Below are positions 10,868 through 27,730 of a DNA stretch of 27,730 bases, piece after piece (position 1 is the first letter of the stretch; every line of letters starts with the position of its first letter). The translations under genes were made by a program, and so were the position numbers. Source of the DNA: a virus (taxonomy: Duplodnaviria > Caudoviricetes); the IMG/VR virus record IMGVR_UViG_3300027733_000173, positions 1 to 27,730 of that record; one strand, 5' to 3'. Under the pieces are notes generated by a model. It saw only the letters and a list, made by a program, of their open reading frames with translations. It did no database searches and was not told the DNA's origin.

Positions 10868-12097
10868 CTATTTAATTCCTTTTTTCAATCCAAGGAATAT
10901 CTTTTTTTCATCATCAGTTAAAGTAATTCCTATTTCATTTTCTATTTTGATTAAAGCAGATGCTCTGTAATCTATAGATTGACTTTCTTGAAGTATATCA
11001 TTCTGTAGAACTGGTAAATGAGTATAATCAGCAACTAATCTCAATCCTTCTTTATCTAATCCTAATTGTTCAGTAATATTATTATAAATTCTTTCAGCTT
11101 CTGGAATGATAGTAGAAGTATAACATAATCTCTCACCATAATTCACGTTAGAGTAAGTCGAACCACTTTCGTTAGAGAAAATATAGTAGTTAAGACCAAA
11201 AGCATCTATAATAGCAAGTTTATCAGCTTTAAGTTCATCAAACAACATTAAATCCTTTGTAGGATAAGACATTGGAGTCCATTTAACATCGTTTTCAGAA
11301 ATAATGATCTCATCTTTAGAACGATTGTACCAATCTTTACGTATTTGTTCTTTTTCTTCTGGACTCATTGGTAAAGCACCACCTAAATCAGAGTTTGAAG
11401 CAGATAATATACCAATAGCGCCAATATTCTCTAAAAGTATGTTACGTTTGTTATATTGAGCCTTAATATTAGATAATGGGTACTTTAAAGATTCAATTCT
11501 TGATATAGAATCTAAAATATTCACACCATCCGTAGTTTGAATGATAACAACTTCTTCATTTAGCAATGTTTCTGGTTTATCACCTTCATAGTTATAAGTA
11601 TAATCTTTTATAAGACCACCTTTATCCATTTGTTTAAGAGTACGACCAGAAGTGTTAATTTGAACCTTATGTCTAGCAAGCGGAACAAATAAATTAACTA
11701 TTCCAAAACTTCTTCGTGGTGCATAACATAAAGCAGTTGAAAATAAACTGTCGTTAACGGATATAGAATACATTACGTCTTGCCAAGTTTGCATTGGATT
11801 AGGATTCTTAATTAAATCAAGTACCCAATGTTTTTCTACTTCCGTACCATCCTCTTTTACAAGCCTTGGACGACCTTGCGAAAGCATTTGAGCCTTTTTA
11901 TCAATTACAGTTCTAAGTTCTGGTATTTCAACATACGCTTGAAATGGTTTTTCGGTATTCATCCAGATTGGAACTTTCTTGCCATAGAAGTCATGTTGAT
12001 ATGCTCTATTTGTATCTAATAGGGTATTTATTTCCCTAAGTTGATTATTATTTATAGGTGTTCCGAAAAAAGCGTTCCAAAAAGAAGGGTTACTCAT
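10868..12097 (-). CDS. Portal protein (HK97-like family)
   Basis: LIKNPNPMQT, SRIESLKYPLSNI, ENIGAIGILS, IIDAFGL and STYSNV motifs; likely start ATG at 12097 (MSNPSFW). Confidence 0.9.
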   Translation of the reverse strand: MSNPSFWNAFFGTPINNNQLREINTLLDTNRAYQHDFYGKKVPIWMNTEKPFQAYVEIPELRTVIDKKAQMLSQGRPRLVKEDGTEVEKHWVLDLIKNPNPMQTWQDVMYSISVNDSLFSTALCYAPRRSFGIVNLFVPLARHKVQINTSGRTLKQMDKGGLIKDYTYNYEGDKPETLLNEEVVIIQTTDGVNILDSISRIESLKYPLSNIKAQYNKRNILLENIGAIGILSASNSDLGGALPMSPEEKEQIRKDWYNRSKDEIIISENDVKWTPMSYPTKDLMLFDELKADKLAIIDAFGLNYYIFSNESGSTYSNVNYGERLCYTSTIIPEAERIYNNITEQLGLDKEGLRLVADYTHLPVLQNDILQESQSIDYRASALIKIENEIGITLTDDEKKIFLGLKKGIK

Positions 12098-12108
12098 AAT
12101 AATTTTTT

Positions 12109-12129
12109 TACATTTGTACAACAAATTTA
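12109..12129. promoter_or_regulatory. Interlocked bidirectional -7 promoter boxes
   Basis: TACATTTG (+, 12109-12116) and TAAATTTG (-, 12129-12122), 5 bp apart, within a 39-bp divergent gap. Confidence 0.7.
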
Positions 12130-25320: not shown

Positions 25321-26160
25321 ATGAGTGAACAACTAAAACAGCAAACATTATATAATGTTTCCGAATCAAATACTAAGAACTTACTATGGGCTGATGTTTA
25401 TGTAAGTGGTACAGAAGGTGCATCTGGAATTTATGTTTCTCGTAGAATGACTTGGGCGCAATGGATAGCCTATCTTAATGCAAACGGAGCAACTGGTCCT
25501 GCTGGTACTAATGGTACTAATGGTACAAATGGAACTAATGGAACTAATGGTACAAATGGTGATAGAGCACTAATGACTCTTAACTATCAAAGTAGCAATT
25601 TAACACTTCAAACTGGAACTTTAACATTACCAGTAAATCCTTCTTTTCCTTTAGTTAATTTAGGATGGATACAAGGTACTAGAATTAGAATTTGGAATAG
25701 TGCTACAGCATATATGGAAGGTGTTATTACTTCTACTATAAATAATCCGCAAACAACTAATATTTCAGTTAATATTGACTACGTTATTGGTAGTGGTACT
25801 CAATCTTTATGGAATGTAAGTGTTGCTGGAGATTTAGGTAATGGAAATCCAAGACTTCAAACAGTTACAAGTTCAGCTACAGTTACGCCAGTATCTACTA
25901 ATGATATAGTAACTATTACAGCGCAAGCTGTTGGACTTACACTTGCTAATCCTACTGGTACTTTTGTTGAAGGTCAAGCATTAATGATTAGAATAAAAGA
26001 TAATGGTACAGCAAGAACTATTGCTTTTGACACTAATTATAGAGCAATAGGTATTACTTTACCTACTACTACTGTTATTAGTAAAACTATCTACCTTGGA
26101 ATTATATACAATTCTACGGATGCAAAATGGGATATTTTAGGTTTAAATCAGCAAGCATAA
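25321..26160 (+). CDS. Tail fibre-like protein with a short collagen-like segment
   Basis: GATGPA(GTN)6G; C-terminal TLANPTG...IRIKDNGTARTI...KWD domain. Confidence 0.75.
   Translation: MSEQLKQQTLYNVSESNTKNLLWADVYVSGTEGASGIYVSRRMTWAQWIAYLNANGATGPAGTNGTNGTNGTNGTNGTNGDRALMTLNYQSSNLTLQTGTLTLPVNPSFPLVNLGWIQGTRIRIWNSATAYMEGVITSTINNPQTTNISVNIDYVIGSGTQSLWNVSVAGDLGNGNPRLQTVTSSATVTPVSTNDIVTITAQAVGLTLANPTGTFVEGQALMIRIKDNGTARTIAFDTNYRAIGITLPTTTVISKTIYLGIIYNSTDAKWDILGLNQQA
25504..25557 (+). repeat. Six 9-bp GGWACWAAT units (GTN x6)
   Basis: Read directly from the sequence. Confidence 0.9.
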
Positions 26161-26879
26161 TGAATTACTATAGTTTAATAAGTTCAATGTTAAAAGCAAA
26201 GGCTAGTACGCTTTTAAATGGTTTGTATGCTGTATATAAAGCTGAATCAAACGCTAACGATTCGCTAGGTGTTTACAATGGAACTGCACAAGGTGGATTA
26301 ACTTATAGTGCTGGAAAGAGTGGAAATGCTTTTACTTTTAATGGCACAAATGCTTATGTTCAATTGCCTAATAACTCATTGAACTTTTTAAATAGCTTTA
26401 CGATTGGTTGGTGGATGTTTATTACGGGAAATTCGGGTGATGGTCAACAGCCAATATCAAATGCACAAAGAAATGCTGGCGGGAGCACAATATTTGGATA
26501 TGGTGTGTTTGTATACACCAATAATTTAACACTTCAGGTTATGGATGGTACTAATTACGTAGGTTTATCTTGTAATATGAGTGCATTATTTGGTACTTGG
26601 GCTTACGTTGAGATTGAAAGAGAATGGAATGTAGGCTCTAAAATAAGAATAAACGGGAGTGTTGTGGCTAGTAATAGTTCAACAATCAATCCAGCTTATA
26701 GGTCTGACGTAGCACATACACCATCTATTGGTGTATATAAACACACTCTTGGAGAGAGTTACTTCATGACTGGTTTAGGTAAAATTGACGAGGTAACTAT
26801 TCACAATAGGATATTGACACCTACAGAAATAACAACATTATATAACGCAGGAGCTGGAAAGTTCTATCCAACATTTTAA
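26160..26879 (+). CDS. LamG/concanavalin-A-like lectin domain protein (candidate receptor-binding protein)
   Basis: GNAFTFNGTNAYV, FTIGWW and GKIDEVTIHNRILTPTEITTLYN motifs; likely start 26160 (TAATG overlap). Confidence 0.85.
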   Translation: MNYYSLISSMLKAKASTLLNGLYAVYKAESNANDSLGVYNGTAQGGLTYSAGKSGNAFTFNGTNAYVQLPNNSLNFLNSFTIGWWMFITGNSGDGQQPISNAQRNAGGSTIFGYGVFVYTNNLTLQVMDGTNYVGLSCNMSALFGTWAYVEIEREWNVGSKIRINGSVVASNSSTINPAYRSDVAHTPSIGVYKHTLGESYFMTGLGKIDEVTIHNRILTPTEITTLYNAGAGKFYPTF

Positions 26880-26882
26880 ATT

Positions 26883-26966
26883 ATGAAAGTAAGACAATTA
26901 ACACTAGAACAAAAGAATATCCTTGTAGGCAAAGTATGGGGGTTCCAAGGTCAATTATTCAATTAA
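26883..26966 (+). pseudogene. Truncated 5' fragment of the gene interrupted by the HNH cassette
   Basis: MKVRQLTLEQKNILVGKVWGFQGQLFN*; 20 of 26 residues identical to the N-terminus of the ORF at 27592. Confidence 0.8.
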
Positions 26967-26994
26967 TAAATGTTACTATTCCATTTATTACTAG

Positions 26995-27002
26995 TATCTT
27001 TG
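26995..27002 (+). promoter_or_regulatory. -7 box for the HNH gene
   Basis: TATCTTTG, 3 nt before the ATG at 27006. Confidence 0.6.
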
Positions 27003-27005
27003 AGT

Positions 27006-27599
27006 ATGATTAAAATAACTCAAAAAGAAAATAGTAAGTACACTATATTAGGATATAGTCATACTGATAATAATTACGTAAAATATTTTGACGCTAAATG
27101 TATTTGCGGAAACAAAACAAAATTAAATCTTCAAAGTGTTAAAAAAAGTATTTCATGTGGTTGCTTATCAAAATACATGAAACATAAAACGCATGGAATG
27201 AGTAAAACAAGTGAGTATAAAACATGGCAAAGTCTTAAAGATAGATGTATTAACGTAAACAATCCTAACTTTAATAATTATGGAGGTAGAGGAATAAGTG
27301 TTTGTAAAGAATGGATTGATTCTTTTGATGTTTTTTTAATAGATATGGGATTAAAACCATCAGTAAAACATTCTATAGAAAGAATAGATGTAAATAAAGG
27401 GTATTATAAAGAAAATTGTATTTGGGCTACAAAAAAACAACAAGCTAATAATACACGTTCAAATTATTTTTTAACATATAAAGGAATAACAAAAACGAGG
27501 GCGGAATGGGCTGATTTTATAAATGTAAACGTAAGAACTTTAGCTAGTAGATGTAGAGCTAATAAACCAATAAATGAAATACTAAAAGAATATGAATAA
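27006..27599 (+). CDS. HNH-type putative homing endonuclease
   Basis: CICG, SCGC, THG, YGGRGISVCKEW, DMG and SIERIDVNKGYYKENCIWAT..QANN motifs, plus a C-terminal HTH-like region; likely start 27006. Confidence 0.88.
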   Translation: MIKITQKENSKYTILGYSHTDNNYVKYFDAKCICGNKTKLNLQSVKKSISCGCLSKYMKHKTHGMSKTSEYKTWQSLKDRCINVNNPNFNNYGGRGISVCKEWIDSFDVFLIDMGLKPSVKHSIERIDVNKGYYKENCIWATKKQQANNTRSNYFLTYKGITKTRAEWADFINVNVRTLASRCRANKPINEILKEYE

Positions 27600-27730
27600 T
27601 ATAAAAGTAAGAGAGCTTACAAACGAACAAGCTCAAATTTTGACAGGAAAGGTATGGGGTTACCAAGGTCAATTATTCAACCCTCAAACAGATGCAAATG
27701 GTAAAAAATTTATCTCAAATGAAGAGGTTA
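27592..27730 (+). CDS. Small tail-region protein, restored copy; runs off the window end
   Basis: MNNIKVRELTNEQAQILTGKVWGYQGQLFNPQTDANGKKFISNEEV...; start overlaps the HNH stop region. Confidence 0.75.
   Translation, partial: MNNIKVRELTNEQAQILTGKVWGYQGQLFNPQTDANGKKFISNEEV

Follow-up and report, generated by a model that had tools for sequence, protein, structure and literature searches.

Organisation of the locus

The window, i.e. the whole stretch of 27,730 nt that was analysed, is a contig from a tailed phage in which Pfam and PHROG matches mark genes for terminase, portal, protease, capsid, tape measure, Erf and YqaJ. At its right-hand end lies the locus considered here, all features of which are on the plus strand. 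A LamG-domain gene (26127..26879; Pfam Laminin_G_3, E 2e-13), probably encoding a tail-tip protein, is followed by a stub ORF of 27 aa closed by TAA (26883-26966), an HNH endonuclease ORF (26970-27599) that matches PHROG 374 'HNH endonuclease' (E 1e-52) and has no Pfam hit, and a replacement gene (27592..27730), the ATG of which overlaps the HNH stop. The replacement gene is cut by the end of the contig; its homologue in L002, a second phage with the same layout, has 80 aa. The HNH protein is 209 aa long when read from 26970, or 197 aa from a conserved ATG at 27006.

The stub and the second start are related by one 81 nt direct repeat (26882-26962 and 27600-27680; 73% identical, spacing 718), which ends in an 18-mer identical in both copies in the window (26945-26962 and 27663-27680); in some sequencing runs the second copy encodes FFN in place of LFN. 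The stop of the stub lies one base past the 18-mer (AAT TAA TAA). Stub and second start have 20 of 26 residues in common, and 7 of the 19 scored codons for the same residue differ, namely the six synonymous differences listed by an earlier sequence-only reading plus N30. The layout described there, running from stub and 18-mer through the promoter box and HNH gene to the second start, is present in all its parts.

The box TATCTTTG (26995-27002), 3 nt before the ATG at 27006, is a putative -7-type box of Bacteroidetes sigma-A, for which a consensus is given in PMC9723704. It occurs at chance level in the window (44 found against 46.8 expected), and its support is conservation, the box being invariant in 7/7 aligned loci. 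In the cassettes of this HNH and of a GIY-YIG-like nuclease described below, a TAnnTTTG box precedes the ATG of the nuclease by 3 nt (26995-27008 in the window; L344:1490-1503), which predicts a leaderless transcript or a transcript that starts inside the ATG. RNA folds of three regions at the junctions gave z values of -0.85, -1.79 and 1.00, and no regulatory hairpin is claimed. The promoter motif and the lack of Shine-Dalgarno-like leaders point to a Bacteroidetes host, and the sequencing runs that match the window best are labelled freshwater or lake.

The layout is not an assembly artefact. One contig from run X1, which may be the source sample of the window, covers 26912-27654 without a difference, and in each of runs X2, X3 and X4 a single contig spans the stub end, HNH and replacement, such that the junction is backed by spanning contigs in all four runs. 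The variant in X4 has a stub one codon longer (Phe-Asn-Pro-stop) and around ten differences in the HNH. Contig L001 is close to the phage of the window (3 mismatches in ~3.6 kb), and was not counted as independent of it.

Some features elsewhere in the window were also recorded. The portal gene (10868-12124) is on the minus strand, opposite to all neighbouring virion genes, and near it are a terminator-like hairpin and a TANNTTTG box, a sequence not enriched by count within the window. A second mobile-type nuclease, with a SegE-like GIY-YIG domain (E 1e-19), lies at 527-958, and a tail gene (25321-26160) has short, collagen-like Gly-Thr-Asn codon repeats at 25500-25560.

Empty alleles and the origin of the two starts

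Two scans gave the same best 80 related loci, out of 107 and 116 confirmed. In these sets, ordered by similarity to a single query and not sampled at random, 78 of the 80 loci are without HNH and the other two, on the contigs of L001 and L002, are filled. Empty alleles, the existence of which the sequence-only reading presupposed, are hence the rule. The target gene follows a LamG-like gene in 76 of the 78 HNH-less loci; L078, which has no upstream DNA, was left out of later counts. L009 lacks the LamG gene: there, downstream of a tape-measure-like gene, an unrelated ORF continues in frame into the target gene (L009:1928-2734).

Among 64 unique HNH-less sequences, the stub has 98.8% nucleotide identity to the empty allele L059 and a mean of 86% to the 60 W-type empty alleles, which average 82% identity to one another. 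The replacement behaves differently along its length: over codons 5-30 its mean identity to the empty alleles is 69%, against 82% among these alleles (0/60 lower), and over codons 31-40 it is 63%, against 72% (3/60 lower), while codons 41-53 are ordinary (83% against 84%). With a typical stub and a replacement that is an outlier only in its 5' part, these comparisons imply that the first copy, i.e. the stub, is the host's native start, and that the second start is foreign over approximately 40 codons and fused to a native 3' part from about codon 41.

This bears upon the synonymous differences, which the sequence-only reading had stressed. Over codons 5-30 they are in excess in the replacement (0.43 against 0.29, with 0/60 empty alleles as high), as are residue changes (6.6 against 5.1 in empty alleles); at codons 31-40 there is no synonymous excess. 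Purposeful synonymous recoding was rejected because both kinds of difference are in excess, as a foreign allele explains, and the synonymous changes are located upstream of the junction. A foreign allele is the best reading of the apparent recoding, and may have been retained for its immunity and its poor recombination with the stub.

The target gene has no match in annotated phage records, where all matches to the HNH are below 60%. The target protein has no Pfam hit and no useful PHROG hit, and matches uncharacterised phage proteins only in a viral fold search. Searches of the PDB by sequence and with Foldseek found nothing, and the protein atlas gave no usable hit. Proteins P0150-P0154 consist of the target protein fused to an extra C-terminal domain of 80 residues.

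Mobility of the cassette

The window and L002 share a tract with 1 mismatch in 765 nt (26961-27725), comprising the promoter-like box, the nuclease gene and the foreign 5' part of the target; in both, this fresh tract encodes LFNP in the replacement. Up to 26960 the stubs have 13 differences, and the downstream gene of L002 differs from that of the window. The LamG genes at the same place have 45% amino acid identity; the LamG gene is host-specific context, outside the cassette. That 765 nt are near-identical behind different stubs implies that the cassette moves as a unit, the comparison between diverged hosts consisting of one independent pair (window and L002) plus read contigs.

Alleles with cassette sequence and no HNH are also observed. 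In run X1, a joint from 26906 to 27625 skips 718 nt, with six letters (GAACAA; 26907..26912 and 27625-27630) that fit both sides, and L005 is the same HNH-less hybrid, its native start being joined to cassette sequence at GAACAA. A second hybrid type, with a later crossover, is present in runs X4 and X6. The sequence-only reading had proposed to check reads for an excision junction; a skip of 718 nt is indeed seen in X1, but via GAACAA rather than the 18-mer and in a phage with other flanks. On their sequences, the hybrids fit either co-conversion without the nuclease gene or nuclease loss by recombination between stub and replacement. Filled alleles are rare, both among the best 80 loci (2/80) and by depth of the filled-allele contig (43 against 684 in X4, 19 against 266 in X6), so their distribution does not look like a sweep.

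The nuclease subfamily

The HNH group comprises 29 protein clusters of 52-99% identity, after which the score drops from 225 to 187 bits. A first viral scan with the HNH alignment covered 39/64 parts and was repeated with a specific C-terminal pattern, which is found in 11 viral contigs and one genome contig; a metagenome scan with the alignment, over 9/64 parts, gave one subfamily locus, L171, which shares its contig with L092. A homologue of the small gene overlaps the HNH stop in 12/12 subfamily contigs (11/11 viral, 1/1 genome), whereas 0/152 control loci of more distant HNHs have the target gene after the HNH. Contig L262 (1735 nt), a phage-like sequence with the cassette, is in a bin titled Saccharibacteria and is possibly misbinned.

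The stub has 27 codons in the window, L001 and L002, 31 in L096 and 22 in L097. In L092-L095 and L260-L262 it amounts to a start codon plus about one codon, and in L258 there is none. Since 7/12 subfamily contigs have at most one or two stub codons, the stub is not needed for the element. Stub-bearing members are scattered on a FastTree tree with weakly supported deep nodes, and stubs of 27, 31 and 22 codons are found in three separate HNH branches. In P0037 and P0045, stub and HNH form a fusion protein. That P0002, which has a K-type start, and the HNH P0041 come from one contig of 1109 nt is a guess, prompted by contigs of equal length and by codons that overlap, and was given no weight.

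R126, Y133 and N148 of the HNH core do not vary in an alignment of the 29 relatives, and the catalytic His is missing. In the fold comparison PacI ranks first, with a middling Z of 6.4 (rmsd 2.8 over 80 aligned positions, residues 59-153; the next match has 5.8). The fold comparison suggests a His-Me finger with a PacI-like core, in which R126 and Y133 stand in place of the catalytic His, and activity is predicted by analogy with PacI.

Other nucleases at the same site

A more distant family of target genes was surveyed through its best 80 of 535 loci, 56/64 parts having been scanned. Among these best 80, one locus is HNH-filled, one (L281) has a stub and another nuclease, four have a third nuclease and the other 74 are without a visible nuclease, six of them having <400 nt upstream. 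The third nuclease (L302:593-1351), present with no stub in L302, L304, L305 and L316, is His-Me-finger-like (PHROG 3322, E 8e-21), free-standing and unrelated to the others. At its 3' end it is similar to the last part of the gene usually found upstream.

The nuclease of L281 (L281:797-1728) matches PHROG 314 'homing endonuclease' and NUMOD3, and by its motifs we take it to be GIY-YIG-like. It is found in 13 loci (L281, L343-L355; 73-100% identity), all of which show the stub end; one shows only the last 26 nt of the stub, and counts use 12. These 12 loci have eight distinct stubs, all with Tyr-Phe-Asn, followed by Pro in 11. All 12 visible replacements alter YFNP, ten to FFNP and two to YFNE, and Phe at the first position of this motif is found in 7/62 other alleles. 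In 7/12 of the replacements, the first 75 nt have 95-97% identity to the start that is linked to the HNH in L093, a type of start present in 0/78 loci without either cassette; the arm is thus common to unrelated nucleases.

Several further observations concern these loci. The start of the GIY-YIG-like replacements is also common to HNH-linked L094. An in-frame relation between stub and nuclease was considered as a general feature and rejected, as it is present in the window, L096 and L097 and absent from most GIY-YIG-like loci. Another GIY-YIG-like relative (63% over the N-terminal part) precedes the target gene, with no stub, in L384 and L386 (1501-2350), and diverged paralogues of the target (31-46% identity) lie slightly downstream in the distant phage group, in L096 (3284-3514), L258 (2283-2804) and many of L264-L341.

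Candidate target and immunity site

It is likely, on this sequence evidence, that the nuclease is free-standing and homes, with its target in the small gene. The tract common to the window and L002 ends at 27725 (codon 45), and the first difference of hybrid L005 from the cassette is at codon 41; the target would lie within ~50 nt of the junction and be short (~45 nt). As replacement and stub of the window are identical in the 18 nt that precede the junction, immunity cannot be located there. Codon 39, 26 nt downstream of the second 18-mer, is TGG in 60 of the 64 unique HNH-less alleles and AAA in the cassette (27706..27708), and the encoded Trp is present in 80/80 of the distant best 80 of 535. 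This change from Trp to Lys is a better candidate for immunity than the synonymous changes.

The HNH-linked contigs of runs X4, X6, X11 and X13 (4/4) have no listed change at 27703-27708. They have five or six differences, of which three are at 27675-27681 and the other two probably at the last bases of the window; with the changes otherwise accounted for, there are too few to restore TGG. Across the subfamily, the Trp codon is changed to Lys in the clade of the window, to Tyr in L096 and L258 and to Phe in L262, and is kept in five of nine distinct HNH-filled contexts (L092, L093, L094, L097 and L260), so its alteration is not a general mark of immunity. The HNHs of L092, with Trp, and L262, with Phe, are 85% identical. 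Lys is present in four HNH-less alleles; three of them (L067, L068 and L077) form another lineage, in which no trace of a cassette is seen. K39 may have been carried along neutrally with the founding allele. A test for rare bases in the distant family was rejected as evidence of immunity: each of the eight HNH-filled copies has a rare base at one or more conserved positions in codons 23-44, compared with no more than 4/62 unique others, two of them with the third nuclease, and this comparison is confounded by lineage and by the choice of empty alleles.

Whether immunity resides at the Trp codon seems about evenly balanced. The cassette may instead home with target and immunity at the Phe-Asn-Pro codons or elsewhere, an account that overlaps with the best explanation and to which we assign about a third of the probability. 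It draws upon the clustering of stub ends at Phe-Asn(-Pro), the alteration of the stub's YFNP in every visible GIY-YIG-like replacement, the FFNP of the HNH replacement in X4, X11 and X13, and the retention of Trp in five of nine HNH contexts. It fits less well with the window and L002, which have LFNP, the commonest empty sequence (Leu TTA in 37/60), and still share a fresh tract.

A mechanism and its alternatives

Homing could proceed as follows. In a mixed infection, the nuclease would nick or cut an empty allele between approximately codons 31 and 45, and the right end would be repaired on the donor's replacement gene, with a crossover near codons 41-45. Were the left end to pair with the donor stub, the recipient would keep its own start as far as Phe-Asn(-Pro) and gain the cassette; were it to pair with the replacement start instead, cassette sequence would be gained without the HNH. 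The first stub may have come from a one-sided microhomology join, serving thereafter as the left homology arm. The donor would escape its own enzyme through changes in the target, for which TGG to AAA at codon 39 is the best candidate, and the replacement gene would be translated by coupling to the HNH stop; with a complete second start, splicing is needless.

A more speculative extension, which we hold as a possibility rather than an expectation, is that the stub serves as a renewable homology arm and the replacement start as a chassis swapped among nucleases, with rivals driving the target changes. If so, the cassette would home independently of the hypervariable upstream tail-tip gene, each recipient giving its own start, and changes such as Trp-to-Lys and Tyr-to-Phe would become widespread among the phages whether or not the nuclease gene went with them.

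Homing need not be invoked if the locus is a passive mosaic, made by relaxed recombination around an HNH that does not cut, with the stub as a recombination scar. The phage encodes Erf and a YqaJ exonuclease, filled alleles are low in frequency, and tail-tip regions are mosaic anyway, LamG genes being ~30-55% identical among loci. Such an origin is nevertheless unlikely, as it leaves unexplained the three unrelated nucleases at one site, the position of 12/12 subfamily contigs before this gene and the shared Phe-Asn-Pro codons at which stubs of two nuclease families end.

Integrative elements that restore an att-site gene carry a copy of part of the interrupted gene, and the sequence-only reading had likened the cassette to these. 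It does carry part of the gene that it interrupts, and an integrative element with an 18-bp att-like core and precise excision would account for the two matching copies of the 18-mer in the window and L001, one at each end, and for the 718-nt skip in X1. The 18-mer is broken in other filled alleles, however: the L002 stub differs from the window at 3/18 of its bases, and the replacement copy differs within it in runs X4, X6, X11 and X13. The skip occurs at a 6-nt match elsewhere, stub ends vary among relatives, and the cassette is without an integrase or other recombinase. Lacking a conserved core and having variable junctions, the cassette is very improbably an element of this kind. The 18-mer is neither conserved nor a target-site duplication and, given that the L002 stub differs up to 26960 beside the shared tract, is to be regarded as local homology rather than a duplicated att core.

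The weakest alternative, a self-splicing intron or a read-through joining the stub to the 3' part, may appeal to the stub being in frame with the HNH ORF in the window (TAA TAA between) and to the fusions in P0037 and P0045, but is very unlikely, as the 718 nt are taken up by the 81 nt gene copy, the ORF and a leader of ~40 nt, with no room for a ribozyme, and one chance-level Rfam match (E 0.62) was found.

Homing of the cassette therefore stays the preferred explanation, and it offers a population-level view of the entry of a homing endonuclease into coding sequence without an intron, intein or split protein. Filled, empty and nuclease-less hybrid alleles are all in public data and the inferred target is short, so the question of immunity can be tested with natural sequences and one cleavage assay. 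If K39 is the mark of immunity, the element imposes the replacement of a Trp that hardly varies otherwise in its host protein. In annotation, short stubs that precede phage nucleases should be treated as scars rather than genes.

Comparison with known systems

The cassette resembles free-standing homing elements in having an intact ORF of homing fold outside an intron or intein, in being optional at a fixed site and in its tract, with a co-converted flank, being found in diverged hosts. The elements of PMC2988022 are intergenic and have a cut site far from the gene, whereas the insertion here is 27 codons into the target; the stub-less relatives do have the intergenic form. The closest parallels are the MobE, Seg and Mob elements of T4. 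MobE is a free-standing HNH that nicks the downstream gene nrdB at nucleotides 122-126, and its self-protection has been proposed to depend on polymorphism (PMC2790892). Both systems have a free-standing HNH just upstream of a conserved gene, the 5' part of which travels along, with a target, here a putative one, in that downstream gene and a polymorphic host allele, and co-conversion without the nuclease gene, i.e. marker exclusion, would be common to both. A review of T4 covers intronless homing, marker exclusion and split genes, and also describes one-sided events with microhomology joins in intron homing (PMC2988022). The T4 elements differ in being intergenic, or in dividing a gene into two parts that both function (mobA, Aeh1 mobE), in having His-type rather than PacI-like nucleases, and in that no duplicated start or stub is described in the accessible text of PMC2790892 and PMC2988022 (0 matches to 'duplicat' in the latter).

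In PacI, a tyrosine replaces the catalytic histidine (PMC5714182). PacI (PDB 3m7k) is likened to the protein of the window by the fold match over residues 59-153, the absence of a catalytic His and the invariant Arg126 and Tyr133 of the latter. PacI is a restriction enzyme, whereas the window protein behaves as the product of a mobile gene and has two further domains, a Cys-bearing beta domain at the N-terminus and a helical one at the C-terminus.

A stub with a replacement start in phages was not found described in the literature searched, including the accessible text of PMC10448857, PMC12724721 and PMC8351571, which is weak evidence of absence as most subscription papers and supplements were outside its scope. 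The nearest gene hybrids are the mORFs of fungal mitochondria, known from Allomyces atp6, Glomus atp6, atp9, cox2 and nad3, and Ophiostoma rps3 (PMC3630166, PMC4019555), in which a foreign C-terminus is supplied and the native one displaced (PMC3630166, PMC4019555, PMC6279837, PMC7487136); GIY genes duplicated along with the atp9 N-terminus are also mentioned (PMC7487136). As in these hybrids, a nuclease gene and a foreign piece of its target are fused in frame with no need for splicing, and the displaced native piece is closer to relatives than is the inserted one. The mORFs are mitochondrial, affect the 3' end and hence the C-terminus, and have LAGLIDADG or GIY-YIG nucleases, in contrast to the 5' end, phage and HNH of this case; the cassette works like an mORF hybrid and is not a member of that class. 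Since the 5' end is replaced, a start codon and a promoter-like box have to come with the cassette.

The sequence-only reading held that damage to the target is avoided without splicing, through the element's own copy of the 5' end. The native stub, foreign second start, mobility of the cassette and absence of an intron support this account of the locus in part; avoidance without splicing is not new, since T4 free-standing endonucleases and mORF hybrids do the same. Both halves of the mechanism, intronless homing and mORF-type hybrids, are already known. Hence the best reading, which rests on sequence comparison and analogy, is that the cassette probably represents intronless homing as in T4 MobE, yielding a gene hybrid as in the fungal mORFs, at the 5' rather than the 3' end.
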